Shown: positions 2,721 through 61,961, counted from the stretch's first letter. The stretch is DNA of 64,000 nucleotides from a bacterium (GCA_020444425.1 JAHLLB010000011.1:19915-83914); one strand, 5' to 3'. The notes: generated from the sequence alone by a model not told the origin. A program made the numbers and translations.

Positions 2721-2730
2721 GGGAGGACGC

Positions 2731-18648: not shown

Positions 18649-18708
18649 ATCATCTCCAAAAAACGATGGTAAATCCAGCAAGCGTACGCTGAGTTGTTGC
18701 TCGGCCAG

Positions 18709-39950: not shown

Positions 39951-41225
39951 ATGGCAGCGAATGCACATACATCAGGCGTAACACCCCTCCCCAGGCTGGT
40001 TTCGGCCTTGCTTGCAGGACTCTGCCTTGCTATGGTGATTGTGGCGCACGCGGGTCCGATCCCCGAGATCATCAGGATTTATGGCGGTCGCGACGACGAG
40101 CTGAGCAAAGATCTCATCCTGACCCATGATGGCCGCATTCTCACCACCGGCTGGACTGAATCACACGGCGACACCCTTGGCGATCTGCAGGTAATGGCGA
40201 TGGGGCTCGCCTGTGATTCGATGTGGTCGATGACGGCTGGCGGAACTGGCGGGCTGGAGAAGGGCAAGGAGATCGTGCTACTGCCCGGCGAAGGTGTTCT
40301 GGTTGCCGGATACACCGAATCCGTCCCCAATGACCACCGCCAGGGGTATCTGCTCCGTATTGGGCTTGATGGCAATCTGGTGTGGTCGCAACAGCTCGGT
40401 GGTACTGGCCGGGACGGGTTCTTCGACCTGGCACCCCTCGCCGATGGCACCTTCCTCGCAGTGGGCGATTATCAGGTCGACCCCTATCGCGACGGTTGGC
40501 TGTATTGCTTCACAGCATCCGGCGATTTCGTCTGGCAACGTTTTGTCGGCACTGACCGCGACACACGTCTGTTCACCGCCTGCCAGTTGGTTGATGGCAG
40601 CATCATCTGTGCCGGCTGGAGCCGCCCGGCACTACCCGGAACCATCCCGGACATACACCTCTTTGCGTTGACAGAATCCGGTGATCCACTCTGGGACCGA
40701 ATATTCGGCACCGGCGAACAGGACATCGCCCGCCGCGTGCGTCCACTGGCGACCGGCGGATTTGTCATGACCGGTGAGTCTGAATTGCCGGAGGATGAGG
40801 GCGCGGAACAGATTGTGATCGCCCGTTTCCAGGCTGATGGAACGCTGGTCTGGGGGTTGGCCTGCGGGAACGAGTGGTTGGATCAGGCGAGCGACCTCGC
40901 GATTGATCAGGACCACGCTGTGTATGTCGTTGGTACATCCGAAGTCAACGCCGAGCACGAAACAGACGTCATGTTGATCCGCGTCACCCTTTCCGGCGAA
41001 TTAACCTGGTTCAGCACGCACGGCAGCGATGCGGATGATCTCGGCCGCGGAATCGTGATCGACCCGTTCGGCCGATTGTTTGTCACCGGGCAGACGCATC
41101 ATCGTTTCGCCATTCACCGCACGGACAATTTCATCGCCCGTGTGCTCGACTCCTACCTGCCGGGTTCGCAACCGGCGTTTCTCAGTTCGTTCGACGATGC
41201 GGGAATAGAATTCCGGCGGCGTTAA
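39951..41225 (+). CDS. Exported beta-propeller repeat protein, no CTD
   Basis: About 7 repeats of W....GG...D....L..DG..L..G.T. Hydrophobic N-terminal segment. Start uncertain. Confidence 0.7.
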   Translation: MAANAHTSGVTPLPRLVSALLAGLCLAMVIVAHAGPIPEIIRIYGGRDDELSKDLILTHDGRILTTGWTESHGDTLGDLQVMAMGLACDSMWSMTAGGTGGLEKGKEIVLLPGEGVLVAGYTESVPNDHRQGYLLRIGLDGNLVWSQQLGGTGRDGFFDLAPLADGTFLAVGDYQVDPYRDGWLYCFTASGDFVWQRFVGTDRDTRLFTACQLVDGSIICAGWSRPALPGTIPDIHLFALTESGDPLWDRIFGTGEQDIARRVRPLATGGFVMTGESELPEDEGAEQIVIARFQADGTLVWGLACGNEWLDQASDLAIDQDHAVYVVGTSEVNAEHETDVMLIRVTLSGELTWFSTHGSDADDLGRGIVIDPFGRLFVTGQTHHRFAIHRTDNFIARVLDSYLPGSQPAFLSSFDDAGIEFRRR

Positions 41226-41252
41226 TCTGATTATCGGGAAGCGGGGCAGAAT

Positions 41253-41297
41253 AAAAACCGGGGACACGTTCTTGCGAACATGTCCCCGGTTGGTTTT
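41253..41297. terminator. Bidirectional terminator between convergent genes
   Basis: aaccggggacacgttc-ttgc-gaacatgtccccggtt with A and T tracts. Confidence 0.8.
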
Positions 41298-41331
41298 GCT
41301 CAAGACTGGTGTCACGTGGACACCGCCAAGC

Positions 41332-43344
41332 TTACTTCATCAGCATCATCTTGCGGGTAGCGGAGAATTCACCGGCGTTCAGCTGGTAGAAATACAGACC
41401 GCTGGCGAGGTTCGCACCGTCAAAGGTGAGGCTCTGGTGACCGGCAGCCATCTGGCCGTTCTTCAGCGTCATGACCTGCTGGCCAGCAACGTTGTAGACG
41501 GTCAGGGTGACGTCCGCTGCGTGCGGCAGCGTGAAGTCAATCTGCGTGGTCGGGTTGAACGGGTTCGGATAGTTCTGATCGAGGCTGAACTCGAGCGGCT
41601 GTGTCGCCGTCGGTTCACCAACCGTGGTCGCGCCGAACCAGTTGACCACATTGCCCATCAGGGTCGTGAACTGCGGCGTGATGAACGGCCAGTCCGGATT
41701 GGTCCAGTCAAGGGTATACTCAACGTCAAAGCCGAGGAAGACGGTCTTGCCGCCCCAGGCGTTCTCGTAACGGATACCGTTGACATAACCGAGGTCCGCA
41801 CCTTCAAAGATGGTTTCGGTTTCGGACACACCGGTGACCGCTTCCGGCCAGCTTTCCGCATCCGGATCCTCGAACTCGAGCATGTACGGATCATCCGCGA
41901 AGTCGTCCGAGATCGGGTCGTCCGGGATACCGTAGAACTGTGAGTCACCCGGGTTGTCGAGGTCGTTGCGTGCTTCCTGGATACCAAAGACATCATACGC
42001 AAAATCGCCGGCGGCGAAGCTGGGTTCTTCCGGTTCCGCGTTTGCGAAGAAGTAATCCTGGTCAGCGTAGAAGAAATTACCGCCACCCATCAGGTACGGA
42101 ATGTACGCGTTGCCCGTGTAGTCGCGGCTCGGAACAGAACCCGCGCCCCAACCAACGACGATCACGGCGTTCCAGTCGGAAGTCGCCAGCAAGTACTCAT
42201 CAATACCCTTGTTGTCGTCGACATCGTAGAACGAGTAGTAGATGCCGGCGTTCACGAGCGCGTAACGCATCTCGTAGGTGAAGTTCGACTGATGATCGAT
42301 GAGGAGGATATCAGCATCCAAGCCAACCTGTTCGATGATATCGAAATTCATCTGGCTGTCTTCGTTGCTGTTTTCCTGGCCTTCATCGTCGACGGCCCAG
42401 ATCCAATAGCTGATCATGTCACCGACCGCATTGTCGAGTGTGAAGGTGGATTCGAAAATGCCGTCCTCATCCGGATCGAGCATTTCGTACTGCATCGGAG
42501 CGCCACCATTCACCGAGACATTCAGCATCGCTTCATGATCGTCGGTCCAGCCCGCATCGTCGAAGATGTCGCACGTGATGGTGCATTCCTTCGAACCGTT
42601 GACCGTGTTCGGCAGCTGGTTCATGTTGCCAATGATCGGCGGGGCGCCGAGCGGGTAGGACACGCCCACACGCATGGCGAGGTCAACGACCGGAGCGGAG
42701 GAACCGTACGCACCCCAGGTTTCATCATAGGTGTCCATCCACGGACCACCGAACCAGGTGTAGGTAAAGCCACGGGCCGAAATGTTGTCCGCCAGCGGCT
42801 GCGGCATGCCGTCATCCTGGGTCTTGACCCAGCCGACGATGAACGCGCGGCCGTCGTCAATCCAGATCGCTTCGCCGTTGAACAGCTCTTCCTGTTCAAA
42901 CAGGTACTCACCCCAGTCGCCATCACCGTTGCTCAACTTGTTGAACGGGCCGAACAGGGCTTCACCCAACGGGCTGACCGGTGAGGTACCACGCAGCGGC
43001 GCGCGGCCATCGGCATACATTGCGGCGGCGTCCGGGTTGTATTCCCAGACGAATGACTGGAAGTTACCCGCCGTGTACCACTGCTGTTCTGCGAAGTGCA
43101 CCGAGCACGGAGCGAGCGGCTGGAAGTGCACGCACATGGTGTCACCCAGCGCACCGGAGCTGAGGTAGTAGTCAGTGGTACCATCGCTCATGCGGTTCAG
43201 GTACAGACCGTCCCATTCATCCAGCTCGGGGCCGGTCACGCCCTTCGTAACTTTCGTTGGCTCGAGCAGGTGGATGTCAGTCGCCCACGCCGCCCCAACG
43301 GCGATCAACAGCGCCATGCTCATCAATACCAAACGTTTCAACAT
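41332..43344 (-). CDS. Secreted T9SS-CTD protein with unrecognised N-terminal domain (paralog of the 56471 and 59372 genes)
   Basis: Signal peptide; [14 protein letters not shown] and TWFGGPW motifs; GATase-like domain; [13 protein letters not shown]...ASGLYFYQL. Confidence 0.85.
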
Positions 43345-43411
43345 ACTTCACCCCTTTCGTTGTACGACGTGATGTTACCATCACGACTTCCGGAACTACT
43401 TCCGTTGCTTG

Positions 43412-44341
43412 TTACTGTAACTCGTTCAACTTTTCCTGCAGAGTAATCAGGAATTCTCCGTAGTTCACCGCGTAATAGTAGGTGACAACGTACGAATCGC
43501 CTTCTGCAGGAATTGGATTTCCTTTGAATCGAACAGCGTCTCCCGTGACATCGTATCCCGTGATCTCGAAAGTTATGTCATCCTGCATGACAGAAACAGG
43601 ATAAACAAGATTCACGATCGGGAGATCGAGTTGTGCAATCCCATCAAGGTGCGTGTTCTGTAGCAATGTGACGTCAACCGCCTCGTCGGGAACTTCGACG
43701 ATCACCCCCGCATTCTCCAGCGCCGGGATAAACGCGTTGTCGTCAACATCATCCAGCACAACCATCACCTCGCCATACTCACCCTGACCGTACCAGGCCA
43801 TCGCTTCGAGCAGCTTGACCGAGTCCATGTCAAAGCCCGGCAGCCAGCGATGGGTCGGGTTTGCCATGTCCGCCCAATACTCCTGGGCGGCCTGTGCCTC
43901 TTCGACAGCCATCTCGAAGTCCTGCGTGCTCAGGGCAACGCTCGCCTTGCCTGCGCAGGCTTCCGCAAACAGAGCGTCCACATCCGTGGCTTCCACTTCG
44001 CCGGTTTCAATCAGCACCGCTCCCAGTGTCAGCACGTTTGACAGGTTTCGTTGCGCACTGATCGGTTCGCGTGAATCGGCGAACGCATAGCCGAGCCCGA
44101 GGTACGCTTCGAGGTTGCTGGATTCAGCGTTTGCGGCATCCGCGAACATGTTGAGTGCGTTATCGACTTCGCCGTTGTTCAGATACTCCCACCCCCGCTC
44201 GATCATCAGATCAACGGTCACAGCCGGGCCGGTCGGGATATCGTCACTTTCGGTTGAACAACCCACCACCATGAACAGGGCGGTCAACAGGAGCCCGGCG
44301 GTCAGGATGCGCAAGGTCAGCCGATGAAAATTGGTCTGCAT
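43412..44341 (-). CDS. TPR lipoprotein
   Basis: GGAGG RBS; VVGC lipobox; TPR GWEYL...EAYLGLGYA. Confidence 0.8.
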   Translation of the reverse strand: MQTNFHRLTLRILTAGLLLTALFMVVGCSTESDDIPTGPAVTVDLMIERGWEYLNNGEVDNALNMFADAANAESSNLEAYLGLGYAFADSREPISAQRNLSNVLTLGAVLIETGEVEATDVDALFAEACAGKASVALSTQDFEMAVEEAQAAQEYWADMANPTHRWLPGFDMDSVKLLEAMAWYGQGEYGEVMVVLDDVDDNAFIPALENAGVIVEVPDEAVDVTLLQNTHLDGIAQLDLPIVNLVYPVSVMQDDITFEITGYDVTGDAVRFKGNPIPAEGDSYVVTYYYAVNYGEFLITLQEKLNELQ

Positions 44342-44366
44342 TGTATGATCCTCCATCCGGGGCTGG

Positions 44367-47300
44367 TTACTTCACCAACACCATTTTACGGGTCTTGTTG
44401 AATCCCGGCGCATCCATGCGCACGAAGTAGACACCCGACGCGATCGGCACACCAGCCGCACTCTGTCCATTGAAATGGAACTTGTGCGTACCGTACGCCA
44501 GGTCGCCGTCGAACAGTCGCGTCACTTCGCGGCCCAACACATCGTACACCGCCAGCGTAACCGGACCGGTTTGCGGCAGCGCGATCTTGATCGTGGTGCT
44601 CGGGTTGAACGGGTTCGGATAGTTCTGCCCCAGCTCGAAGCTGGTCGGAACCATCAGGTCGTCCGGGATGTCGCCAATCGGACCCGCCATCACGGCGTAC
44701 GTGCCGGTCTGGCCGACGCGCACGGTGATCAGGCCGACTGCCGGATTGGCTTCGCCACCGACATACACCCATTCGTCCTTGCGCAGCAGATACACGCCGG
44801 CATCCTCTTCGCCCACGGCATCAACGTCATACGGAATCCGCAAGGTCAACGGATCTTCGACCTTTTCGATGTGGTTGCCGATGCTGTAGCGACCACTGAC
44901 CGGCGTACGTCCATCCGTATTCTGGATGAACTTGCCCAGTCCGACCGACGCCACATCCGGCGCACGGACGATCATCAGGTCCTTGTCACGGTCGAAGCTG
45001 CGTGAGGTCGAACTCACCTGGAATCCGTCACTCAGTTTTGCCATCGACGGCCGTCCACCAGCAAAGGTGGACATCACGATGAAGATCGGATCGACATCCG
45101 CAACCGGGACACCATTCGAGTAGTATCCTTCGAGCGCATAGTGCATTTCGCCGGTATCCGTCATCGTGACGTGCGCGACGTACTGATCGTAACGGCCCGT
45201 CGCGTTTTCGACTGAGGTTATCTCGAAATCATCGGGGGAATCGTAGGTTGCGAGCACCGAATCCTCAGCCCCGCCGTAGTACACCTTCACCGTCGGAGCA
45301 GCAACTCCGTCCGCCCGGTACAATGGCTGTTCGGTGATGACGTACAGGTCGAGCATCGTTTCGATAATCGGATTCTGCATCACAAACAGACGGCTGTACT
45401 CCGCGGCATTCTGCTGATGATGCACGAGGAAGTCACCGCCTGCACCCGCCGCGATCAGGAAGAAGGTCGGGAAAGTTGCCTCCGGATCGTCCACGGGGCC
45501 CAGGATCCATCCATCGCCAGGGCTGATCGGCACCACGCCGACATTCAGATCACCCTCGAGTTCGATTTCCTGGGTCAGGATCGGCTTCGCGCTGAGGTTG
45601 TTGTCAACCTCGGTCGCCTGCATGTTGACTTTCCGGAACGCGATATCCGTCGCATCCTCACCGGCAAAGACAACCAGGTTGTCGTTAACCGGATCCAACG
45701 CCCTGTTTAACGTGGTTGCGGTGTACCCGGTGAAGAAATAGTCGAATCCCCATTCCGTGTTCGTCCGTTGGAACGGCGCACGGTCGGGACCGGCAGATGT
45801 CTTCCAACGCATCGGACCACCGCGAATCGCGGCTTGCGTGTTGATGTTCTCGAACATGAACCGGTTGTGATCGTCCTCGGAGTACGACGTATCGATCAGG
45901 TTCGCGGTCGCGAAGTCAAGGAACACGTCGACCACGTCCAGATCCTTCTGCCAGTCCTCCAACTGGTCGTTACGGTCGGACAACGCATCCGCCACGCCGA
46001 AAATGTCAATGCGCGGTGAAACAGACACAGCGGTCAGCATGTCATCACCGCCGTACTTTTCCCACAGGTACAGCATGTACATGAAGACGTGCTTGTAATC
46101 CACGCGGGAGGACAGATCGGACCCGATGAAGGTCAGATCGTTGCCACCCGTCAACCCCCGGGTTTCGGAATCACCGTAGTATCGAGGATGACGGAAGGTG
46201 TAGAACTCTGTGAAGTAGGCCAGACCGTACTTGACCCAATCAACTTCAAACTTGTCAACCTTGTAGCTGACGTACTGCGTATAAACGTTGGCAATGGCGG
46301 ACAAACCGGCTTCATCCAGCTCGTCCATTTCGCCCTCTTCCCAGATCTCGTTGTTGTCGTTCCAGATCCAGGCATCATCACCCGTGTTGTAGCTCTGCGG
46401 GTAGCTGTCGAGGACAATCAGTTCCGCCTCGTTGGAATACTCATCTTTGCCGTTACCCGGCAGGTCGCTCGGCAGGAAATAGCCGTGCTTCCAGAACCCG
46501 GCGTCGCCGTCATTACGCCCGACACCGTACTCATCCCAGATGTCGGTAAACAGGATGACAATCTGTTCCGGGATCTTGTCTGCACGTTCGCCGCCAATCA
46601 GGTCGTCAATGGCCGCCTTGGCTCCCATGTCGGGGAGTTTCAACGTCCGTGTCTCGAAGAAGGTTACCGCGCTGTCCAGCTCAGACTTGCGCAGCGGTGT
46701 GACCATCGGGTGTTCAACCGACTTGCCTTCGCGCAGGTAGAAGGGCTCGTACGGCCGGCCCCACTGGTCGTTGGCAACATACCACAATGCACCCGGACTA
46801 ACCTCACGCAGTGACGCTTGCACGATACGCGGCAGCGTCGGGAACGCTTCGTGGCTGCGGATGTAGAATTCGCGACCGTATCCGAGGATCAGGACGGATT
46901 CGTACAGATCGTTCGATGTCGTATCGCCGTCCATCAAGCCTGTTTGCTCGACGTTCGCGATACCGTCCGCCGTGGTGATGAACCCTTCGCCGACGTCCAG
47001 TACCAGGTCTGTCCGGTCAGCCTCATTGATGCCCTTGATCGACGAAACATCCGTCTCGCTCAGGTACAGCGAGATGCGGTTCGGTTCAGAGATTTCGACG
47101 GATTCCGGCGCACCAACCGTGAGGCCATTCAGCTGTATCCTGGTCAGGTCGATATTTTCTGCCGGAACGGTTCCGTTCGTACCCACCACAAACCGTCCGT
47201 GCACCTCATCGAACCAGACATATTCGACCAGCGGCGGGTTTGGATCGGCGATGTAGTTGAAGTCTTCGACTTCGATGTACCGGTTGCCGTTCAGCTTGGA

Positions 47301-48980
47301 TGACTGCTTGACCGTGTACGGGTCAATCACCATCCGCAATGAGCCGGTATCGATCGTGTTTTCCAGGGCGTAGCGGTCTTCCTCGCTGATAATGATCGAG
47401 AAGGCCTTGTTGCCGCCGGTACGCTCCACCGTTCCATCAGTGAGAGTGACAGTGTCGTCATCCGCCGAGATAAAGTGAATCCCCTCGAACACGACTTCCG
47501 CGTCCAACCGCACGTCGAACAGGATATACAGTTCGTTGGTATCGGCGTCGTAGTACGGCGGCTCCTCCAGATCAAGCGCAGGCCCCTTGTCGCGACCTTC
47601 GGCGATGATGGTCAGCGGGATGCCGTCCGGATTGCCGTCGTTGTTTTCATCCTGGGTGACGTTGCCGTTTCCATCTGCGCTTAACACAGTCGCAGATCGG
47701 ACAAACACCTGGAATTCGAGATCGTTTCCGGTGTCGCCTTCGCCGTCACCGTTCTGGTCAATCAGGTCCTCGGTGGCATGTGCTGTGCCGACACCCATCT
47801 GAACCGTCAGGCTGGAATCAGAATCCGCCAGGCCGGCCAAACCGGACTCCAGCGCATAGGAGTAGGTGGAATCGGGTTCGATGCGCCGAATCGAAAGCTT
47901 CGGGATAACCGCATAATCCTTGACATTGGAAGCGAGCGCCTGGTTGAACTTCACCTTCAGCTCGTTGGAACCCATGTCATACTCGGCCCACATGGCATAC
48001 AGCGGATTCGGGTCCTCAGTGTACTCGACCGCAACATCCTCGACCGGCACCGCTGGGTTGTAGTCGACATCCACGAACGTGTAGTCCGTGAACCGGATCA
48101 TCATCGTTTCCGTGTCCAGAGCTTCCACCGTCGCCCGTTCGGCCGGCAGCAACTGCAACTGCAGCACGTCGGAATCCATCTTCGTCAGGTCGGCTGCGCT
48201 TGACAGGGTCACGAGTGTGTTGTTGGCGTCGTACAACGTGATCTGCGGAACGACGACGTTGGCTTCGAAATCAAGGACGCCGTTGCCGTTGCGGTCTTCG
48301 TTTTCACCACCGGTCAGCACGCCGTCACCCGGCGCTGGCCAGTTCTTGTTGTACGGGTCTTCCGTAGCCACATCTTCCGGGATCTGGTCGAACTGCATCA
48401 CCTTGTTGAAGCTCAGGGTCAGCGTGTTCGACGCGGCGTCGTATGCGGCATCGGTCAGATTGACCTCATCGTCGGAAACGACTTCCAGGTAGGTGAGGTC
48501 GATCCACGTACCTTCCGACAGGTTGCCTTGCGGATCGCTGGCCATCCCGGCCGGGCACCACATCCGCATGTGATCGAAGGTCATGTGGTCCAGCTCTTCC
48601 TCAATGACCAGCAGGTCATCGTAGTCCAGACCCCAGAGCTGGCGGTCTTCGCTGGACGTTCCGTCATCGTAGACATATTCGGCGATGACGCCTTCGAAGT
48701 AGGGGTGGAACATGATTTCCGTGGGCGTACTTCCATCCATCACGATCCCGCCACGCAACTCGTGGTCACTGAGCGGGCCGCCCAAGTCGTCGTCAATCAT
48801 GATCCCGGTAATGACGAAAGCATCCGGGTCAACGGCAACATTGGAACTGAATTCCACGGAAAATGAGTTTGTCAACTCGTCATAGGTTGCGGCGGTTGGC
48901 ACAGGTTGCGCCATGAGCAGTGGCGCGGCCAACAGCAGCAGGACCGGAACCCATACGAGTGCATATCTCAGTCGTAGCAT
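44367..48980 (-). CDS. Giant secreted T9SS-CTD protein: about 5 Ig-like repeats, then an M30-like peptidase domain lacking HExxH
   Basis: Signal peptide; repeats of A.YD...N.L.(L/V).F; IVILFTD..GYF...SNEAEL.VLD, then ANVYTQ and YMLYLWEKYGG; [13 protein letters not shown] tail. Confidence 0.82.
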   Translation of the reverse strand: MLRLRYALVWVPVLLLLAAPLLMAQPVPTAATYDELTNSFSVEFSSNVAVDPDAFVITGIMIDDDLGGPLSDHELRGGIVMDGSTPTEIMFHPYFEGVIAEYVYDDGTSSEDRQLWGLDYDDLLVIEEELDHMTFDHMRMWCPAGMASDPQGNLSEGTWIDLTYLEVVSDDEVNLTDAAYDAASNTLTLSFNKVMQFDQIPEDVATEDPYNKNWPAPGDGVLTGGENEDRNGNGVLDFEANVVVPQITLYDANNTLVTLSSAADLTKMDSDVLQLQLLPAERATVEALDTETMMIRFTDYTFVDVDYNPAVPVEDVAVEYTEDPNPLYAMWAEYDMGSNELKVKFNQALASNVKDYAVIPKLSIRRIEPDSTYSYALESGLAGLADSDSSLTVQMGVGTAHATEDLIDQNGDGEGDTGNDLEFQVFVRSATVLSADGNGNVTQDENNDGNPDGIPLTIIAEGRDKGPALDLEEPPYYDADTNELYILFDVRLDAEVVFEGIHFISADDDTVTLTDGTVERTGGNKAFSIIISEEDRYALENTIDTGSLRMVIDPYTVKQSSKLNGNRYIEVEDFNYIADPNPPLVEYVWFDEVHGRFVVGTNGTVPAENIDLTRIQLNGLTVGAPESVEISEPNRISLYLSETDVSSIKGINEADRTDLVLDVGEGFITTADGIANVEQTGLMDGDTTSNDLYESVLILGYGREFYIRSHEAFPTLPRIVQASLREVSPGALWYVANDQWGRPYEPFYLREGKSVEHPMVTPLRKSELDSAVTFFETRTLKLPDMGAKAAIDDLIGGERADKIPEQIVILFTDIWDEYGVGRNDGDAGFWKHGYFLPSDLPGNGKDEYSNEAELIVLDSYPQSYNTGDDAWIWNDNNEIWEEGEMDELDEAGLSAIANVYTQYVSYKVDKFEVDWVKYGLAYFTEFYTFRHPRYYGDSETRGLTGGNDLTFIGSDLSSRVDYKHVFMYMLYLWEKYGGDDMLTAVSVSPRIDIFGVADALSDRNDQLEDWQKDLDVVDVFLDFATANLIDTSYSEDDHNRFMFENINTQAAIRGGPMRWKTSAGPDRAPFQRTNTEWGFDYFFTGYTATTLNRALDPVNDNLVVFAGEDATDIAFRKVNMQATEVDNNLSAKPILTQEIELEGDLNVGVVPISPGDGWILGPVDDPEATFPTFFLIAAGAGGDFLVHHQQNAAEYSRLFVMQNPIIETMLDLYVITEQPLYRADGVAAPTVKVYYGGAEDSVLATYDSPDDFEITSVENATGRYDQYVAHVTMTDTGEMHYALEGYYSNGVPVADVDPIFIVMSTFAGGRPSMAKLSDGFQVSSTSRSFDRDKDLMIVRAPDVASVGLGKFIQNTDGRTPVSGRYSIGNHIEKVEDPLTLRIPYDVDAVGEEDAGVYLLRKDEWVYVGGEANPAVGLITVRVGQTGTYAVMAGPIGDIPDDLMVPTSFELGQNYPNPFNPSTTIKIALPQTGPVTLAVYDVLGREVTRLFDGDLAYGTHKFHFNGQSAAGVPIASGVYFVRMDAPGFNKTRKMVLVK

Positions 48981-49024
48981 CGAAAATCCTCCTGACTCTG
49001 TCTCATCCTCCATCGGGGATGGGA

Positions 49025-50005
49025 TCAGAACGAGAACGAGATGTTGAACCGGTGCACATCCTCAAGAACACCGTACTCACTGAACGCGTAATCAATTCCG
49101 ATCCGCTGCCACAGGAAACCGACACCTGCGGACATGCCGAGGGTATCGTGGCGGAACGTGTAGCCGCTGCGGAGGAAGAACATTTTCTGGAAGCCGTATT
49201 CGGCGCCCAGATTCACGCGTTCAATGTTGTCGTTCGGATGCTCGAGGTCACCCGCAAGGGTCAGCCGGTGCTGTTCAGTGTTCAATGGGTCCATGGCCAC
49301 GCCAAGCCGGAAAACCATCGGGAAATGGTAGGGCAGAAATTCCGTCGATTCCGTCGCCTGGGATCCGTTGTCGAAGTCGTAGTAGCCGCCATCCAGCTGC
49401 ATTTCCGGTCCGAAGTTGCGCACCGCCATGGCGAGCCGGACCGAGTTCCACTGGGTGTCGTACATGATGCCGACGTCGATCGCGAAGTTCGACGCGACTT
49501 CGGTGTCGAGATCTTCGCGCACATACTTCAGGTTCGTTCCGAAGGAGAATTTGTCGGTCAGGCTCATGCCCAGTGACATGCCGCCGACGATGTTGGTCAC
49601 GTTAAAGGTTTCACCGGTACCCATCGGTTGCTGCACCGTGGTTACCTCCATGTCGCCCGACCCCATCGCGAGGGCGAACGCGCCAATGGTAAAGGTGTCG
49701 TTGAGCCTGTGTGCGCCGCCGACCGCGTCATAGCTGATATCAGCGAAGTACTCCACATGCTCGAACATCACCGATGAACTACCGATCTGTGTCATGCCCG
49801 CCGGGTTCCAGAACATGGCGGACTGGTCGTTACTGATGGCGGAGAATGCGCCACCCATGCCGACACCTCGCGCGCCGATAGGCAGCTTGAGGAAGTCAGC
49901 CCCGGTGGTGCCGACTTTTGCGAATTCAGCGTGGGCGCCGCCAGCAGCGACGAGCAGGGCGATCAGCACCGCCAAGCCCAGCTGATATACCGTTCGTCTA
50001 TTCAT
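49025..50005 (-). CDS. PorV/PorQ-family outer-membrane protein
   Basis: KVGTTGADFLKLPIGARGVGMGGA, FWNPAG, IDYAF, terminal Phe. Confidence 0.9.
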   Translation of the reverse strand: MNRRTVYQLGLAVLIALLVAAGGAHAEFAKVGTTGADFLKLPIGARGVGMGGAFSAISNDQSAMFWNPAGMTQIGSSSVMFEHVEYFADISYDAVGGAHRLNDTFTIGAFALAMGSGDMEVTTVQQPMGTGETFNVTNIVGGMSLGMSLTDKFSFGTNLKYVREDLDTEVASNFAIDVGIMYDTQWNSVRLAMAVRNFGPEMQLDGGYYDFDNGSQATESTEFLPYHFPMVFRLGVAMDPLNTEQHRLTLAGDLEHPNDNIERVNLGAEYGFQKMFFLRSGYTFRHDTLGMSAGVGFLWQRIGIDYAFSEYGVLEDVHRFNISFSF

Positions 50006-50027
50006 GATCGAACTCCTTGTGCCGAGG

Positions 50028-52562
50028 TCAGCGGATGATCAGAAACTTCCCGACTTTCTTCTCGTAACTGGGCGACTCCGTCTCAACGACGTAGACGTAC
50101 AGCCCCGATACGACTTTCTGGTTGTTCCTGCTGATCAAATCCCAGTAGACCGCACCGATGGTTCCGTCATCCTTGTAGATCTCCTTGATCAGATCGCCGT
50201 TCAGCGTGAAAATGCTGATCTTGCACAGGGAGGGAAGGTTGATGAAACTGATCTGGTCTTCGTACCGCGCTTCGAACGAGGCGGTACCCTTGTAGGGATT
50301 CGGGACGACCTTGATATCGTCCATGGTCAGGTCGCTGTCTGGATCATCCGGATCAGCCGCCGGTGCGTCGATAGGAAGCACACCGGGGATCACCGCCTGC
50401 GGCGCACCGTCCAGATCCTTGCGGTAGTTCGACTTCGCCGATTCAATCGACGGCAGGCCGAACGTCGACATTTTGTCCGGATCGTAAGCGACAACGGTGT
50501 AGTAATACTTCAGCCCGTTGACCGGCCGTTCGATGTCCTTGAAGATGATCGTGCCGTTCTTGTCGGCAAAATCACCGCCGTAATCCTCATACGTATACGT
50601 CAGGTCGGGCAGGTCGACCGGGATGTAGTTCCAGTCCACACCCTGCACGTTGTTCTCGTCCCCGACGATCTCAGCGTATTCGGGTTCGTTGTACGCGTAC
50701 TGGGAACCGTCGTATTCGATCGGGTTGAGCGTGTCACCTTCCGTGTTCTTCAGGTAGGTATCACCCTCGTTGGGCATGTCAAATGCTGCGATCATGTCCC
50801 AGGTCTGCGGGTTGTACTTCGACCGGTAGATCTTGTACCCGAGGAAGTCGGTTGTGCCGAGGAAGCTGTCGATCGCATCCTCCGCGCTGTCATCCCAGAC
50901 TAGTTTCACGCCGGCGTCCAGCGCGCTGTAGTGCAGGTCTGGAATCGCGGGCGGAATCGGTAGCAGGAAGTGCCGGTCCTCGCGAATCATCGCGTCGCTG
51001 GTGCCGGTAAACCCGATCTGGCTGGCGAACGCGTCGCTTGGTGGAATTTCCGGATCGCCGATTTCAGCCAACTCACCCTGGTAGTAAGCGACGAGGGCGT
51101 TGTCGATGTTCTCGCGCAATCCCTGAATCCCCCAGCCAACACCCGTCACCGCGACGAACTTCTTCGTTTCGCCGTCCGTGAAGCTGTGCGGACCGCTGGA
51201 GAGGATGTAGCGGTAGTCGAACACCGGGGCTCCGGCGCCGTAATCGAACGGGTGCGGCATGAAGCGCTGACCGGCGGACAGCGTGTGCGTACCGGTCATG
51301 TATTCATACTTCTCCCTGTCCGAACCCGGGTCGGATTCCCAGTTCCACCACTGGTGTGAATACGGGCGATGGGGCGGATCCCATTCATCTTCCGGAGCCC
51401 GGTTTTGGCTGGCCAGGTACGGATCATCCGGGATGTAAAGGAACTTGGTTCCGATGAAACCAGCCACCGCCGGGTTCATGCTGCGTTCGCCGATGTCGAT
51501 CTCACCAGACTGCGGGTAGTCACCATCATACATGTAGCTCATGTCACGCGGAATCAGGTACCCGCGCAGGGAATCTCCAGCAGCCGTAACCACCGGCTCA
51601 CCGGCAACGTATCCTTTGTCCGGAACACTGACCTGGTACCGGATGTAATCCGGAACGTCGTACCCGGCTTCCACATACACTGCCGGATCCACGACGTAGA
51701 TCTGGAATTCGTCCCAGATACCGTCCGGTTCCGGATTGTCATCAGCCGGAGCTTCTTCGCCGGCAACCGGAGAATAGCCGTTCCAGAACGGGTTGCGCGG
51801 GTCAGCCTTCGCCCAGCCCCAGTAATCGTAGCCGGTTTCTTCGTTGCCGTCCAGATCCAGCGGGTCGACCCAGTCGTACTTATATGGGTTCTGACCTTCC
51901 GGTGCCCAACCGTCATAATCGACGAGGTCGTCGATCGCCGGCTGGTCCGGGTCGTAGTGCGCGCCCACATCGTTGTCGTACACGAAGGATATGTACACGT
52001 TGTTCAACTGGCCACCGCTGACGTTTTCCACTTCGATCAGCTTGATGATGAAGTCGTCGTAATCGGTCAGCGACCATGCAAGCGTGCGCTGATGGAATTT
52101 CAGGCCGATCGGAGTGTGGCCACCGATTTCAGCGTTCAGGTCGTCAAAGTGGGACAACCCGTCCTGAATCGACTTCGGGCCGGTTCCGAAATAGAAGCTG
52201 GAACCGTCCGTCGGGTCGAGTTCGTAGTTGCCGTAGTCCGCGTGGCTGACGAGCGGTTCACCGCCAACCAGCGCGCCGGCCCAGAAGCGGCCTTCCCAGA
52301 TGTAGTAGACGCCGGACCCGCCGGGCCACTCGCCCGAAGGCAGCAGCTCGTTAGGTTCGCCGTAGTTACCGAAGTTGGAAACAGCGGTCCAGAAGTTGCC
52401 GACATCATGCACTTTGTATTCTGTCGGCGGACGGGCAGCGGTTCTCCGCGGACCTTTCTTCGGACCGGTCATGTCAATGCGCGCGGCAAAGCTGGAGCTC
52501 GCGGCCAGCAGGCAGGCGAGTAACACCAGCAACACCGTCGTCAGGATGTGGTTTCTTCTCAC
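50028..52562 (-). CDS. Secreted TBDR-associated protein with FN3-like region and variant CTD
   Basis: AGGAGG + GTG start; signal peptide; HDVGNFWTAVSNFG; GYKIYRS, YYYTVVAYD; IKVVPNPY...INLP..C.ISIFTLNGDL...SGLYVYVVE. Confidence 0.85.
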   Translation of the reverse strand: MRRNHILTTVLLVLLACLLAASSSFAARIDMTGPKKGPRRTAARPPTEYKVHDVGNFWTAVSNFGNYGEPNELLPSGEWPGGSGVYYIWEGRFWAGALVGGEPLVSHADYGNYELDPTDGSSFYFGTGPKSIQDGLSHFDDLNAEIGGHTPIGLKFHQRTLAWSLTDYDDFIIKLIEVENVSGGQLNNVYISFVYDNDVGAHYDPDQPAIDDLVDYDGWAPEGQNPYKYDWVDPLDLDGNEETGYDYWGWAKADPRNPFWNGYSPVAGEEAPADDNPEPDGIWDEFQIYVVDPAVYVEAGYDVPDYIRYQVSVPDKGYVAGEPVVTAAGDSLRGYLIPRDMSYMYDGDYPQSGEIDIGERSMNPAVAGFIGTKFLYIPDDPYLASQNRAPEDEWDPPHRPYSHQWWNWESDPGSDREKYEYMTGTHTLSAGQRFMPHPFDYGAGAPVFDYRYILSSGPHSFTDGETKKFVAVTGVGWGIQGLRENIDNALVAYYQGELAEIGDPEIPPSDAFASQIGFTGTSDAMIREDRHFLLPIPPAIPDLHYSALDAGVKLVWDDSAEDAIDSFLGTTDFLGYKIYRSKYNPQTWDMIAAFDMPNEGDTYLKNTEGDTLNPIEYDGSQYAYNEPEYAEIVGDENNVQGVDWNYIPVDLPDLTYTYEDYGGDFADKNGTIIFKDIERPVNGLKYYYTVVAYDPDKMSTFGLPSIESAKSNYRKDLDGAPQAVIPGVLPIDAPAADPDDPDSDLTMDDIKVVPNPYKGTASFEARYEDQISFINLPSLCKISIFTLNGDLIKEIYKDDGTIGAVYWDLISRNNQKVVSGLYVYVVETESPSYEKKVGKFLIIR

Positions 52563-52585
52563 GGTGATGTATCCTCCTGCCTCGT

Positions 52586-55500
52586 TTAAAATTCGATTCC
52601 TGCGCCGACCTGCAGCATGCGGCCACGCTGGTAGTAACGCGGATCGTCGTACTTCCCGTCGACGTCGTTGAACTGTTCGTACCAGCCGGTGTCAGCGTTT
52701 GCCTGGAAGAAGCGCTGGTCGATGTTTTCACGATCCAGCAGGTTGTAGACCTGCACGAACGCGTACACGTTCAACGATTTCCAGATGCCCCACTCCTTCT
52801 GCACGCGTGCGTCGAAGGTGAGCGTGTAGGGCAGGCGCTGATCGTTGATCGGCGGATCCAGCGACCGGGCCGGGCTCGAATAGGGCAGGCCGCTGCCGTA
52901 CTTCCCGATCAAGTTGATCGACAGCCCGTCGAAGTACGGTAGGCCGAAGATGTCGGAATCCGTCGGTACGAAGAACTGGACGTTGCCGTAGATCGTGTGG
53001 CGCTGATCCCAGTCGAGGTAGGATTCCGTGGTCCGGATCAGGTTCCCGGCCCAGGCGTTTTCATAGTTCTGGCGCGCTTCGGACGCCTTACCCTTGGCCA
53101 CCGCGTAGGTGTAGGAGAGGCTACCACTGGTGAAGTTGCTGAAGCGCTTGCTGAGGCTCATCTCGAAACCACGGACGTTGCCGTAGTCCTGGTTGATGTA
53201 CAGGCCGTACCAGTTACGCGCGGTGAAGAACACCTGCCGTGTGTCAACCAGGCCGCTGATGTCCTTGTAGAAACCGGTGGCGACAAACACGACGTCATCG
53301 GTAAACTGGTGACGCAGCGTCAGCTCGTACGAGGTCGTCCGTTCCGGTTCGAGGTTCGGGTTGCCGACGATCGGGAACGCACCGGAGAAGTCCCAGTTGA
53401 CGTTGGTGAACGCGTAGCGCAGCAGCGGAACCTGGAAGTTCCGGCTGTAGTTGAAGCTCAACTGGTCGCGTTCGGTGATCGGGAACGCCACACCAAGACG
53501 CGGACCCCAGTAGGTCTTGCCTTCAACCGCCGTTGGATCTGCAACCTCGCCACCAAGTGACGGGTCGGTAACCGGGTTGGTGATGTCAGAGGGGTAGTCA
53601 TCCCAGTTCACGTCGAAGTAGTCCGCACGCAAACCGAGGTTCAACACCATCCCCTCAAATTCCATCTTGTCTTCCACGAACGCGCCGTACAGACGCGGCG
53701 ACGCAGTGAAGTTCTGGCCGTACACGTTACCGCCGGAGGCCATGTCCACATCGTGGTCGAACAGTTCGTAGAACGTCAGCTCGAAACCGGCCTTCACTTC
53801 GTGGAACTGGTGCATCTGGCTGGTGATGTGTCCCTTGAACGTGTAGGTTTCCTTGCTGTCGTTGTTCCAGCGGGACCGGTTGTACGTCGTACCGGTGCCG
53901 TAGGTGTAGAAGTCGTTGTCGTCCTTGCTGTTCCCGAACGGCATATCTTCCCACCCCAGCCACGTGTCGCGCGGACCGGACTGTGACGCATCGACGTAGC
54001 CGTCGTCGTCCTCATCCGTCATCAGGTCGTGGGTCGGACCGTACTCTTCCCAGTCCCAGATCTCGTTGCCGTTGATGTCCTCATACTCCCAGACACCATT
54101 CTGGTTGTAATCGAACCAGTACTGGGTACCGTCGGCATTCGACTCCAGCACGTCACGATACTCGTTCAGCAGATCATCGGGAATCTCTTCGATCGAACTG
54201 TAGGCCTGTTCCAGATCGAGCTGGCCGTTGCCGTTCGCGTCTTCGTTGATGTATTCCCGCGTGTTGTAGTGCATCTCCGTCTTGAAGTAGGAGAAGCCCA
54301 ACTCGAAGTAGGTCCGCTCACTGATCGTCTGGTCCCACTTGGCGCTGAACTGGTTGATGTGCTGTTCGAAGTACGGCAGGTGATCGAGCATGCTGAAGTT
54401 GCTCAGGCTGCCGTCCTTGTTCAGGTCTTCGCTGTCGATGACGCCGTCACCGTCCAGATCCTCGCCGGCGTCCAGCACGCCGTTGCCGTTGAGGTCTTCC
54501 GTGTCCAGCTGGCCGTTGTTGAACCACGGGGAATTGCTCGGATCGTAGTAGACATAGTCGCTGGCAATCGTACCGTCGTCGTTGTACGACGGCGCGTAGC
54601 CATCAAGCCTGTCTTCATAGTCCGTGCGTGACCACAAGTGGGTGTAATTGGTCCAGTTGGAGTTGGTGACGTTGCCGCTGAGCGTGAATTTCTGCTTCGG
54701 CGTGGGGCTGTAGCTCAGCTTTCCGAACCCACTTGTCATCGTGCTGTCATCGTTCACGAACCGGCCGCGCGTATCGTACCACTGGCCGGCGACGAAGAAG
54801 TTGAGGTCACCGATGCGGTTGTCGAGCAACGGAATCGGACCCGACAGCGCGAACTGCAGGTCTTTCATCTCGTCGTCTTCAATGCCGCCGTCGTTGGTTC
54901 GGCCGAGGAACGACCCGGAGTAGCGTTCGCCACCCTCTTTCGTGATCTGGCTGACAACACCGGAGAGGTTGTTGCCGTACTGAGCCGACATACCACCAGT
55001 GGTCACGTTGACTTCCTCGAACGCCACCTGCGGGATGTAACCCTCATAGTCACCCGTCATCGGGTCAACCATCGACGCGCCATCCACGAGGTACAGCACT
55101 TCCTCCTCACGGCCGCCGCGGAAGTTGCCGCCGACCGCGCCCGGGGTCAGACGAATCACCTCACGCACGTTCTCGACCGGCATCGCCTTGATGTCTTCCG
55201 AGGTACGCGTGGTCCGGCTGTCCGTCATGTCCGGCTGGATCAGCGGTTTTTCAGCAACGAAGACAACCTCTTCCCCGATCAGGGCTTCCGGGGTCATCTC
55301 GATGTCAATGGTAGTTGTCCGGCCTTCCGTGACACGGACCTCGCGAACGGATACCGGACGGTAGCCGATGATTGAGGCCTTGATCTCGTAGGTGCCAGGT
55401 GGGACGTTCAGAATGACATAGCGGCCATCCAGGTCGGTAGCCGCGCCGTGCCGCGTTCCATCGATGATGATGTTCACACCGATCAGCGGCTCACTGCTCT

Positions 55501-55615
55501 CGGTCCCGACAACCGTCCCGACAATCTTGCCCGGGGCGGCTTGTACCACCCCAGCCAACATGACCAGGAGTAGCAGGGTTGCGAGAACACTCCACACACT
55601 GCGAGCATGGTTCAT
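52586..55615 (-). CDS. TonB-dependent receptor with N-terminal carboxypeptidase-regulatory-like domain and Ca-binding loop insertions
   Basis: GKIVGTV..EPLIGVNI, plug RGGR..E..YLVDG, GGMSAQYG, GNPNLEPE.T.SYE, terminal Phe. Start at 55615 or 55627. Confidence 0.93.
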   Translation of the reverse strand: MNHARSVWSVLATLLLLVMLAGVVQAAPGKIVGTVVGTESSEPLIGVNIIIDGTRHGAATDLDGRYVILNVPPGTYEIKASIIGYRPVSVREVRVTEGRTTTIDIEMTPEALIGEEVVFVAEKPLIQPDMTDSRTTRTSEDIKAMPVENVREVIRLTPGAVGGNFRGGREEEVLYLVDGASMVDPMTGDYEGYIPQVAFEEVNVTTGGMSAQYGNNLSGVVSQITKEGGERYSGSFLGRTNDGGIEDDEMKDLQFALSGPIPLLDNRIGDLNFFVAGQWYDTRGRFVNDDSTMTSGFGKLSYSPTPKQKFTLSGNVTNSNWTNYTHLWSRTDYEDRLDGYAPSYNDDGTIASDYVYYDPSNSPWFNNGQLDTEDLNGNGVLDAGEDLDGDGVIDSEDLNKDGSLSNFSMLDHLPYFEQHINQFSAKWDQTISERTYFELGFSYFKTEMHYNTREYINEDANGNGQLDLEQAYSSIEEIPDDLLNEYRDVLESNADGTQYWFDYNQNGVWEYEDINGNEIWDWEEYGPTHDLMTDEDDDGYVDASQSGPRDTWLGWEDMPFGNSKDDNDFYTYGTGTTYNRSRWNNDSKETYTFKGHITSQMHQFHEVKAGFELTFYELFDHDVDMASGGNVYGQNFTASPRLYGAFVEDKMEFEGMVLNLGLRADYFDVNWDDYPSDITNPVTDPSLGGEVADPTAVEGKTYWGPRLGVAFPITERDQLSFNYSRNFQVPLLRYAFTNVNWDFSGAFPIVGNPNLEPERTTSYELTLRHQFTDDVVFVATGFYKDISGLVDTRQVFFTARNWYGLYINQDYGNVRGFEMSLSKRFSNFTSGSLSYTYAVAKGKASEARQNYENAWAGNLIRTTESYLDWDQRHTIYGNVQFFVPTDSDIFGLPYFDGLSINLIGKYGSGLPYSSPARSLDPPINDQRLPYTLTFDARVQKEWGIWKSLNVYAFVQVYNLLDRENIDQRFFQANADTGWYEQFNDVDGKYDDPRYYQRGRMLQVGAGIEF

Positions 55616-56470
55616 GGCAGTCCCCATCTTAATCCGACAGTTCCTGCGGACGACGAAATCATCGACCGCTATCCACATCAAAAATGTTTCTGTCTTAATG
55701 GTTGCTGCGAAATTCGGCGCAGGGAAGGTTCGGATCTGCCTGAGAACTGGAGCGTTCCCGGTGGGGGACACCAATGGGAGGGAAGTACAACATCAACCCG
55801 GCGAGTGTAATGGAGACTCACTCACTCACCGTTACAACGAATACTGCAACATGTGGCCGACCGCTGCACAACAGATGAGTCTCCCCAGCCTCATCGGTAC
55901 ATCGATCACAAGCGGGCGATGAACCTTGTGCCCCGATACCGTAAGTATGCGCAGTGCTTGCATCGGAGACGACGTCCACCCCCGTGATCGACGTCCCGCA
56001 CCCCAGAAATCCGACCTTAGCCCTCTCGTTTCGTTCCGCGCGATTAACGAATTCCTAACAGATACGTTACGCAGGTAAAAGCTTGCGGGTCAACAACCTG
56101 GCAACGTTCCTCTCGACTCGTCTCGGAATCGTGCTCCGATTCTCGTAAACCCGCTTTGTCCACTAATAATCTGAAAAAGATACAAATTCTTCCAACAAAA
56201 AACACTCCTTGGAAGCATTTTACAGTAAAAGGGAGCTCTGGGTGTTTCGGGAGCACTGTGTTCCAAATGTCGCAAAGCTTCGATTTCTACGTTTTCACTT
56301 CTGCAAAACCACGTTCATAATCCGTAGTTCTGACAATCGGCCCGGCTTCGCTTTTAGGATTTCCCGGCCCTTCACCGTCAGGAGAGACTGCCTCCGGAGT
56401 CAGAGAGCACAAACGGAACACCCGGAGCAAATTGCCCCGGGCATGTATAAATGACACACCAGCATTGAGC

Positions 56471-58825: not shown

Positions 58826-59146
58826 GTTCCTCTCCCCGGTCAACCGTTTTGTTTCATCCGCACCCAGCAGAAATATACGTATTAGAAGTTTAACATAGCG
58901 GTCCCCCGGTTCCGGAGCAACAAGATTTTCGGGGTACCCCTGGGATCAGTTGTCGAGGCCACCGGACAAACCCAAAAACTCGTCGCCAATAGTGGCTGGA
59001 GACAAACAAACGGCTGGAGACAACAGAGAATGTGGGCAAGACCAGCGTACACACCCCAGGAGTTCTTGCCCTTGAGAATTTTACGAAAGTGGAGGAGCCG
59101 GAAGGAAGTGGAGAAGCCGGAACGTATGGCGAAAAGCGGCAAGTGG

Positions 59147-59268
59147 GTCATTCTGAAAGCGCGTCAGTTTGCGCTTGAAGAAGAGCCAGATGATCAATAG
59201 CCTAACCTTTGTTCTGTCTTGGGAGTAGCTGGTTCTTCCTCACTTCTCTGCGTTCCGTTCGGAATGAC
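59147..59268 (+). repeat. 122-bp GTCATTC..GAATGAC element
   Basis: First ~52 bp identical to 61962-62013. Arms match 38267-38388 inverted. Confidence 0.88.
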
Positions 59269-59298
59269 TCGTTCCTTCACCGGCGTCATTTCATAGAA

Positions 59299-59330
59299 CT
59301 GGGGGCATGTATTCGCATACATGCCCCCAG
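59299..59330. repeat. Perfect 14-bp-stem hairpin (REP-like or terminator)
   Basis: ctgggggcatgtat-tcgc-atacatgcccccag. Confidence 0.7.
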
Positions 59331-59371
59331 GGATTTACCAATTACCGACTACCGTTCACCGCCATCCGTCC

Positions 59372-61714: not shown

Positions 61715-61961
61715 GGTCCCCCCACAGTGGACGTTCGCGATACGATACTCATTTTTAAAACCCTCTTCAGTAAACATAGAGTGGGATTGTGACTTGATCA
61801 ATTGGTCTGGCCCGATTCTTCGGATAGTCTCAATAAATCGACTCGAGAGTCGCATGGCCAAGCCGGGCACTCTGAACCACTTCTGACCCGCAACTGGTTC
61901 AGGCAGGTAGACCTCTGACGTCGCGGAAACGTGGGAATTCATCCCGAAAGGCTGCAAGCAC

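Follow-up and report, generated by a model that had tools for sequence, protein, structure and literature searches.

A SusD-free operon joining a TonB-dependent receptor to a PorV-like barrel and type IX secretion cargo: a candidate surface capture-and-import module

Background

In the textbook model of polymer harvest by Bacteroidota, uptake is TonB-dependent and the receptor is closed by a SusD lid. In the Sus system, which represents the SusC/SusD-type polysaccharide utilization loci (PULs) of Bacteroidota, the TonB-dependent transporter SusC is combined with the SusD lid, the SusE and SusF binders and the SusG amylase. Phyla of the Fibrobacterota-Chlorobiota-Bacteroidota (FCB) group that lack SusD dominate sediments and the dark ocean. 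Here we analyse a six-gene operon at 41332-55615 (minus strand) of a bacterial DNA stretch of 64,000 nucleotides (G000:C59:19915-83914; hereafter the window), which comes from a 4.48-Mb assembly of 74 contigs that is 91% complete. The operon codes for a TonB-dependent receptor (TBDR), a PorV/PorQ-family barrel, three proteins bearing the C-terminal domains (CTDs) recognized by the T9SS (type IX secretion system), and a tetratricopeptide repeat (TPR) lipoprotein. We judge it fairly probable that these products form a T9SS-coupled outer-membrane capture-and-import module, which would be a functional analogue of a SusC/D/E/F locus, one that dispenses with surface lipoproteins.

The systems closest to this locus have been described from several directions. 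The roles of SusD, SusE, SusF and SusG and the export of surface lipoproteins are set out in passages of PMC6222051. The CTDs of Porphyromonas gingivalis PorU and PorZ are not removed and remain bound to PorV and PorQ, respectively, and cognate PorV-like barrels have been proposed to protect such retained CTDs (parts of the review PMC10202324). Proteins with type-B CTDs are anchored on PorP/SprF-like barrels, according to excerpts of PMC9143113. Another barrel holding a surface protein is BamG, a 14-stranded FadL-like barrel that docks beside BamA and holds BamH by its extracellular loops (passages of PMC12578637).

Organization and transcription of the operon

The six genes lie in the order TBDR, 844-residue protein, PorV-like barrel, 1548-residue protein, TPR lipoprotein and 670-residue protein, and an open reading frame (ORF) listing gives spacings of 10-67 bp between them (23, 22, 11, 10 and 67 bp in gene order). 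Since the signal peptide of the 1548-residue protein begins at Met12, the likelier start of its gene is 48980, which gives a product of about 1537 residues and widens the preceding gap to 44 bp; the lipoprotein gap becomes 25 bp from a later Met. The open frame of the TBDR extends beyond its ATG to a TTG at 55774. Downstream, 41 bp past the last stop codon, lies a hairpin resembling an intrinsic terminator (41256-41291, minus strand), with a 16-bp stem containing 9 GC pairs and a loop of 4, followed by a T-run. Terminator-like sites are not in excess in the region (10, against 13.6 in shuffled sequences), and this hairpin has by far the longest stem among them. The initial annotation, made from the bare sequence, had described six co-oriented genes with gaps of 22-67 bp ending at one terminator; the co-orientation and the single terminator are borne out with slightly tighter spacing, and its domain identities for all six genes agree with the Pfam and curated-model calls.

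Four metatranscriptome runs from one study of freshwater sediment, available as assembled contigs, were compared with positions 40000-59500. These runs contain 60-89% of the sampled words from a 6-kb stretch, and contigs identical to the window span all five gene junctions (e.g. X2 record 9, X1 records 2 and 4, X3 records 21 and 23). Contigs starting inside the TBDR gene reach 56043, 56159 and 56160 (records 8, 24 and 32), thereby extending 430-545 nucleotides upstream of its ATG, and each of the four runs has cover in the depth bin 55624-56274; the upstream leader and probable promoter region is placed by this cover at 55616-56274 (minus strand). Such bridging fits co-transcription together with a long leader. 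The contigs accord with the expectation of co-transcription, though contigs show neither a single transcript nor its strand and ends. Cover is next to nil at 40000-41301 and nil or next to nil at 56275-59500 in the four runs, but gaps in contig cover say nothing about where transcripts end or whether the upstream paralogues are silent. Some RNA contigs join 41352-41367 to 44590-44601, skipping about 3.2 kb between the CTD-coding 3' ends of the 670-residue and 1548-residue genes; these joins are most likely assembly chimeras across repeated CTD sequence. Rfam searches of 40800-56800 returned zero matches at E<=0.1, so no riboswitch was recognized ahead of the TBDR. Scanning for promoters gave no sigma-70-like site ahead of the TBDR gene, and alignment of the leader with those of loci L001 and L010 gave no conserved block.

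The receptor, the lipoprotein and the absence of SusD

The first gene (52586-55615, minus strand; 1009 residues from the ATG) codes for a TonB-dependent receptor, in that both the Plug (31.5 bits, cut-off 23.9) and the barrel (84 bits, cut-off 27) exceed their Pfam thresholds. Its architecture comprises a signal peptide, a CarboxypepD_reg-like N-terminal domain (66 bits), the plug, and a barrel of the 22-strand type with an Asp-rich insert. Identity with SusC/RagA was rejected, as the model TIGR04056 scores 61.1 bits against a cut-off of 368 and matches over model positions 2-117, which is the N-terminal domain only. In agreement with the claim that no SusD-like lipoprotein follows the receptor, the next gene is that for the 844-residue protein, and no SusD_RagB match was found in the genome, at the 91% completeness of the assembly.

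The fifth gene (43412-44356, minus strand) codes for a lipoprotein of 314 residues whose N-terminal region is of TPR type and whose C-terminal part is rich in β-structure. The TPR matches are weak, with TPR families matched in up to 15 of 15 orthologues, and the lipobox cysteine (Cys33) is invariant in all 15. SusD proteins are themselves TPR-like helical lipoproteins, and this invites the view that the TPR lipoprotein is the divergent SusD of an otherwise ordinary SusC/SusD-type locus, in which the genes for the PorV-like and CTD proteins would be no more than co-located T9SS cargo. A somewhat suggestive feature is the sequence that follows the lipid cysteine, where most orthologues have acidic residues without an exact match to CS(D/E)2, the motif for surface export of lipoproteins given for Bacteroides in passages of PMC6222051. 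Against this, 35 Pfam families were matched at E<=10 by the lipoprotein and its 14 orthologues, and the 25 families with the most matches include no SusD family (0 of 15). The protein has 314 residues, and three genes separate it from the TBDR in every six-gene locus. Combined with the receptor's shortfall on the SusC model (61 against 368 bits) and a genome devoid of SusD_RagB matches, these findings make a disguised SusC/SusD locus very improbable.

The 844-residue protein and its adjacent barrel

The second gene (50028-52562, minus strand) codes for an 844-residue surface protein to which a Pfam search assigned no family. An AlphaFold model built from 32 relatives (pLDDT 79, pTM 0.77; predicted local and global accuracy scores, respectively) divides it into a signal peptide, a galactose-mutarotase-like β-supersandwich at about residues 46-500, fibronectin type III-like (FN3-like) domains, and a PorZ-type (variant) CTD, modelled as a sandwich, at about residues 745-844. 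The supersandwich is of the type that precedes the catalytic domain in enzymes of glycoside hydrolase (GH) families GH15, GH65 and GH94, and the model aligns by VIA-align with the N-terminal domain of the glucoamylase 1lf6 (Z 19.5, root-mean-square deviation (rmsd) 3.0, 239 residues aligned, model range 46-588). An enzyme of these families was nevertheless rejected, for the N-terminal domains alone align (residues 35-313 of 674 in 1lf6); the (α/α)6 catalytic domain is absent from the model, which beyond residue 530 consists of FN3-like and CTD β-structure. Foldseek searches with the same model returned FN3 pairs, PorU (6za2) and PorZ (5m11).

For the tail of this protein, matches were confined to the C-terminal portions of the models for PorZ and PorU. 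Thus, the PorZ model NF052228 is matched over its positions 669-757 only, at 31.5 bits against a cut-off of 260, and the protein is not a full-length PorZ; the type-A CTD models TIGR04183 and PF18962 gave no match at E<=0.01. The distinctness of the tail was assessed across the genome by comparing a hidden Markov model (HMM) of the variant tail (from A1 residues 745-844) with a type-A HMM over 330 tail-bearing ORFs. The type-A model scored best for 323 of the 330, and none of these 323 matched the variant model, while the seven ORFs scoring best with the variant model are exactly six proteins of the modules considered below and the PorZ homologue of the genome. These figures also point to a secretome unusually dependent on the T9SS, with about 323-330 type-A-CTD ORFs in 4.48 Mb and at least 10 barrels of the PorV/PorQ family.

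Relatives of the 844-residue protein constitute a large family without a name. A word-indexed search retrieved 191 proteins at E<=1e-5, full-length matches ranging from 39 to 96% identity, and a search of 1.84 billion cluster representatives yielded 3419 matches at E<=1e-3, of which 947 also passed E<=1e-10 and 73 passed E<=1e-30.

The third gene (49025-50005, minus strand; 326 residues) codes for an outer-membrane barrel that belongs to the PorV/PorQ family, matching the full NF033709 model at 219.3 bits (cut-off 90). PorV proper, PorQ and PorV2 were each rejected as its identity, the scores being 83 against a cut-off of 250 (NF033710), 106 against 220 (NF033711) and 76 against 325 bits (NF052325). 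The genome's best scorers on these three models, on contigs C3 (199.9, PorV), C28 (159.6, PorQ) and C64 (104.7, PorV2), also fall below the equivalog cut-offs. We further placed the barrel in a quick IQ-TREE phylogeny of 68 PorV-like barrels, with support from the SH-aLRT test, in which the long branches of C28, C10 and C64 are unreliable. One group of 21 rows (SH-aLRT 84) takes in the window barrel and every one of the 16 barrels of six-gene loci; the core of this group has 16 rows (SH-aLRT 98), and the window barrel is the sister of that of Electryonea clarkiae (support 99).

Modelling of barrel residues 27-326 with residues 735-844 of the 844-residue protein gave a complex score of 0.91 in three runs against 0.01 for the best control, with at least 91% of the contacts common to the runs and a partner pLDDT of at least 78. 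The mark applied to this score was attained by 58 of 80 solved complexes and by 2 of 110 mismatched pairs, figures that apply here only approximately, as the modelling used our own alignments. An interface is therefore predicted between two of the partners grouped by the initial annotation, namely the PorV-like barrel and the 844-residue tail. Given the homology of the tail and the adjacency of the barrel gene, we infer that the 844-residue protein may be anchored at the surface by this barrel.

These observations could also be accommodated if the barrel and the TBDR assisted secretion or assembly of the neighbouring cargo, as a dedicated T9SS sub-pathway for export or attachment comparable to that of PorP/SprF for type-B cargo, with no role in uptake. 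The pairs SprF-SprB and PorP-PG1035 are known cognate barrels adjoining their cargo (excerpts of PMC9143113), and the confinement of the PorZ-type tail to the modules and PorZ accords with such a function. A pure helper function would, however, leave unexplained both the plugged TBDR as a constant third partner (51 of 79 loci, see below) and the nutrient-polymer themes of the cargo in related modules, and we regard it as improbable.

The cargo proteins

The two remaining CTD proteins carry type-A tails, scoring 37.7 bits (1548-residue protein) and 45 bits (670-residue protein) with TIGR04183 (cut-off 23). The claim that a dedicated PorV holds the T9SS-exported proteins of this operon therefore has to be divided: it is supported for the 844-residue protein, on account of its PorZ-type tail and the modelled interface, and probably does not hold for these two, which have ordinary type-A CTDs. 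Such tails are shared with 323 other ORFs of the genome, and the two proteins are probably handled by the canonical PorV/PorU.

The larger protein (44367-49013, minus strand) begins with about 700 residues of repeated β-domains, followed by an M30-like core at about residues 700-1130, further β-sandwich domains and the CTD. A model of residues 700-1265 (pLDDT 85.6, pTM 0.83) superimposes on the M30 zinc peptidase lugdulysin (7bb8_A) with Z 25.0 and rmsd 3.0 over 313 of 360 residues at 20% identity; the runner-up structure reaches Z 11.6, and the Foldseek E-value for lugdulysin is 1.1e-11. By this model the core adopts the fold of the M30 catalytic domain. The link rests on fold comparison, since Pfam matched tail families only in 17 of 17 orthologues and a sequence profile of the protein run against the PDB did not retrieve lugdulysin. 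Feature matches in the Atlas name 'Peptidase M6-like' and DUF6055 (score 0.77) and serve as a lead only.

None of the 32 aligned relatives of this protein has the zinc motif HExxH, be it within the core or elsewhere along the aligned row. Gluzincins are expected to have their zinc helix and glutamate helix as a consecutive pair; in the core model, the first of two consecutive helices (203-220) contains NVYTQ in the window protein and the second (226-240) contains WVKYGLAYFTE, and the NVYTQ helix lies at what we take to be the position of the zinc helix. In the relatives from the Fidelibacterota-type loci L012 and L013 the HE is kept and the second His is lost. Because the motif is missing from 32 of 32 relatives, we read the M30-like domain as a probable pseudo-peptidase that might act as a binding scaffold rather than as an enzyme.

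For the 670-residue protein (41332-43344, minus strand), sequence searches of the PDB and Pfam searches with nine relatives gave tail or chance-level matches only. Its Atlas model is poor (pLDDT 0.64), and structural comparisons with it (TM-scores 0.34-0.58) assigned no fold. Genes for two paralogues of this protein (40-42% identity) immediately precede the operon on the minus strand, at 56471-58843 and 59372-61966, and beyond them lies a gene for an InhA-like CTD protein with MAM, Cleaved_Adhesin and CarboxypepD_reg domains (62150-63931, minus strand).

The nature of the cargo lends itself to a different view of the whole operon, namely that it serves surface display, adhesion or an envelope structure. 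The barrel would then anchor the 844-residue protein, the other CTD proteins would make up a coat or adhesin layer, and the TBDR-like barrel would be a scaffold or signalling receptor instead of an entry route. Several features are in keeping with this: the operon has no recognizable catabolic enzyme, its largest cargo appears to be a dead peptidase, the roughly 700 N-terminal residues of that protein are repeated β-domains of an adhesin-like kind, and the six-gene content is unusually well conserved for a nutrient locus. On the other hand, the receptor retains its plug and full barrel, amylases, CBM20, a phosphatase and a subtilase, all of which are nutritional themes, are found in sister modules built to the same plan, and the distribution within the phylum is patchy, like that of accessory uptake loci. 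On balance we consider surface display as the sole purpose of the operon unlikely.

Conservation across phyla and sister modules

We scanned one genome per species for relatives of the 844-residue protein (p844), confirmed 472 and retained 79 loci. A contiguous TBDR-p844-PorV triad is present in 29 of these, and in a further 20 a p844-like gene lies within a few kb of a TBDR-PorV pair; two more have the arrangement TBDR-p844-CTD-X-TBDR-PorV seen in Rubrivirga. A TBDR and a PorV-like gene hence accompany the family in 51 of the 79 loci (29 triads and 22 nearby pairs). Contig ends cut the upstream side of p844-PorV in 7 loci and the downstream side of TBDR-p844 in 3, the flanks are too short for judgement in 16, and p844 stands alone despite adequate flanks in 2. 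One relative from a cultured Balneolaceae (L049) has neither a TBDR nor a PorV-like partner in its available flanks.

The full order TBDR-p844-PorV-CTD-TPR-CTD recurs in 11 of the 79 loci, with 5 more cut or partial. Sources of the six-gene loci are Candidatus Electryonea, Tariuqbacter, KSB1, Fidelibacterota/Neomarinimicrobiota, Calditrichaceae, WOR-3/Hydrothermales and other bacteria, as well as one metagenome-assembled genome labelled Actinomycetota. Because the same six-gene order is found in 11 loci from several phyla, the arrangement exceeds chance. Conservation of gene order, on which the initial reading had depended, is accordingly seen in Electryoneota, KSB1, Fidelibacterota, Calditrichota and WOR-3. 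With the core of the 1548-residue protein as sole query, 18 of the phylum's 79 genomes, the present one (G000) included, gave a match at E<=1e-10, as did 13 of 15 genomes of its own family, G000 not counted.

The genome itself contains six modules composed of a TBDR, a large variant-tail protein and a PorV-like barrel, namely the operon and five others. One of these lies at G000:C71:194655-214731 (L084), where a TBDR, a 1230-residue protein with a PorZ-type tail and a PorV-like barrel, with a second TBDR upstream, are accompanied by a protein combining the starch-binding module CBM20 with a CTD, a GH13 protein of 462 residues, and a GH13 protein of 1314 residues with starch-binding modules, a PKD domain and a CTD. 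Judged by its predicted products, this module is a Sus-like starch set without SusD. A second module (G000:C47:19486-31903, L081) is of a split type, with a p844-like protein, an alkaline phosphatase (271 bits), a CTD protein, a 526-residue protein, a TBDR and a PorV-like barrel, and may serve scavenging of phosphate or nucleic acids. In the quick tree the barrel of this module is placed together with barrels from loci of Rhodothermota, Balneolota, Ignavibacteriota and Bacteroidota (support 93). Split-type modules, related to the operon, are also found in part of the loci L036-L079, together with L042 and L047, both from Rubrivirga, of which L042 belongs to a cultured one (Rubrivirga sp. IMCC43871). 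The cargo is a CBM4_9+CTD protein in the module on contig C58 and two β-helix proteins in that on C4. The last module (C59a) lies partly upstream of the window (G000:C59:13019-18723), its TBDR and PorZ-type-tail protein sitting just before the start of the window, and continues at window positions 45-3744 (plus strand) with an S8 subtilase bearing a type-A CTD (45-2720) and a PorV-like barrel (2668-3744). Going by domain content, the cargo of the sister modules is substrate-themed (amylases, CBM20, CBM4_9, phosphatase, subtilase and β-helix proteins). The idea that such proteins replace SusD, SusE, SusF and SusG is made much stronger by the existence of these paralogous modules, one of which has two GH13 proteins and CBM20.

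The secretion machinery that the modules would require is encoded elsewhere. SprA is present, a true PorU (705 bits) is encoded ahead of the barrel with the highest score for PorV proper, and PorQ-like and PorV2-like barrels and a full-length PorZ homologue (C71:240965-243301, 202 bits) occur separately in the genome. The sortase lies at G000:C3:28335-31559 and is distinct from a 1611-residue protein encoded in the window (33305-38140, plus strand), which has a C25 peptidase domain along with NIDO, CARDB and a type-A CTD. The window further contains a sensory cluster (4882-18681) in which two hybrid kinases, one of them with 1886 residues and rich in PAS/GAF domains, are joined by a histidine kinase, a sigma-54 activator and a chemoreceptor of 931 residues with multiple HAMP domains.

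Proposed mechanism and its implications

We propose that the operon works as a capture-and-import module in the following way. All its products would be exported by Sec, after which the three CTD proteins would traverse the outer membrane via the T9SS of the genome (SprA, PorU, PorV and the PorZ homologue). The 1548-residue and 670-residue proteins would presumably be processed by PorU and then tethered or released at the cell surface. By analogy with PorZ on PorQ and PorU on PorV, the PorZ-type tail of the 844-residue protein would be retained and plugged into the extracellular face of the neighbouring PorV/PorQ-like barrel. As this barrel is proposed to sit beside the TBDR, the supersandwich and FN3 arm of the 844-residue protein could be held over or near the mouth of the receptor, in the position occupied by SusD. 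The dead M30-like domain and the 670-residue protein might act as non-enzymatic binders in the manner of SusE and SusF, and the captured ligand would be imported by the receptor with TonB energy. That import takes place, and that the TPR lipoprotein has a role in the module, are points we infer. As to the substrate, our guess is a peptide or glycopeptide.

Several considerations weigh against this proposal. The contact between barrel and TBDR is deduced solely from their constant adjacency. The good score of the tail-barrel model may reflect likeness to PorV-CTD complexes that have already been solved rather than binding by this particular copy. The clues to the substrate diverge, as the predicted dead M30 fold suggests a peptide and the modelled supersandwich a glycan. 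With no catabolic enzyme here (no glycoside hydrolase family matched in any of the six proteins, just as the initial annotation had noted) and the largest cargo catalytically dead by its missing motif, a structural or adhesive role fits as well. The RNA contigs, all from one study, show no strand, ends or single transcript, and may include DNA carry-over. Neighbour labels in the 79 loci came from HMMs of this genome's own paralogues and phmmer at E<=1e-5. Finally, the locus is accessory and not universal, since its 1548-residue core is matched in 18 of the 79 genomes of the phylum. The interpretation originally given, in which T9SS-exported proteins held by a dedicated PorV take the place of the SusD/E/F layer, is thus partly supported, and none of the tests set for refuting it has gone against it.

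Beyond the single operon, we tentatively entertain an FCB-wide class of PUL-like systems where SusD is replaced at the TBDR by a protein whose PorZ-type CTD is retained and which is seated on a dedicated PorV/PorQ-like barrel. In such a class the enzymes and binders might be T9SS cargo and not surface lipoproteins, and its possible range would take in Electryoneota, KSB1, Fidelibacterota, Calditrichota, WOR-3, Latescibacterota, Ignavibacteriota, Rhodothermota, Balneolota and some Bacteroidota. If this were true, capture by way of the T9SS would represent an old, widely distributed alternative to the SusCD design, possibly its forerunner, and the many unexplained PorV paralogues in these genomes would be receptor-side anchors. 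The operon and its five sister modules suggest a testable architecture for polymer harvest in FCB phyla without SusD, one that joins T9SS attachment to TonB import. Reading them as modules would give a function to the unnamed 844-residue family, to surplus PorV/PorQ paralogues and to PorZ-type tails outside PorZ. It could also improve substrate prediction from metagenomes, in which such loci are now annotated as hypothetical proteins. Because related split-type modules are present in cultured Rubrivirga, genetic and structural work on that type is feasible.

Comparison with known systems

Neither full-text searches of the literature nor passages of PMC5317091 and of the preprint 10.64898/2025.12.01.691665 (supplements excluded) yielded a description of modules combining a TBDR with a PorV-like barrel. 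The Sus system offers a functional parallel. Like it, the operon encodes a TBDR with a CarboxypepD_reg-like N-terminal domain together with candidate surface binding proteins, and the sister module on C71 has a Sus-like starch content. Unlike in Sus, the genome lacks a recognizable SusD, the receptor falls outside SusC/RagA, its partners are T9SS CTD proteins and not lipoproteins, and a PorV/PorQ-like barrel is a constant member of modules of this operon's type.

The fold of the 1548-residue core is shared with M30 peptidases such as lugdulysin and hyicolysin, but the core differs from these in having no HExxH and in being embedded in a multidomain T9SS cargo protein. Of the barrel-based systems, BamG-BamH of the Bacteroides β-barrel assembly machinery (BAM) resembles the proposed arrangement in its side-docked geometry, which we extend here, conditionally, to the PorV-like barrel, the TBDR and the 844-residue protein. 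It differs in belonging to a protein insertion machine, and BamG lies outside the PorV/PorQ family; a single sister barrel reaches 28.5 bits with the BamG model, far from the cut-off of 250. The type-B CTD systems (PG1035-PorP and SprB-SprF) are similar in that cargo and cognate barrel are encoded side by side, with the barrel as a non-covalent anchor (excerpts of PMC9143113). They are distinguished by their PorP/SprF barrels, as against the PorV/PorQ-type barrel of the operon, by a different type of tail and by the want of a TBDR partner.

In its proposed mode of attachment the operon resembles PorU-PorV and PorZ-PorQ of P. gingivalis, for the 844-residue tail matches those of PorZ and PorU and is modelled as docking on a PorV-family barrel. 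Yet the body of the 844-residue protein is a predicted supersandwich with FN3-like domains, in contrast to the propellers of PorZ and the peptidase of PorU, its barrel fails the equivalog cut-offs, and the pair is encoded with a TBDR and occurs in six copies in the genome. The operon would thus combine TonB-dependent uptake with T9SS attachment, and would do so with components that stand outside SusC, SusD, PorZ and PorQ.

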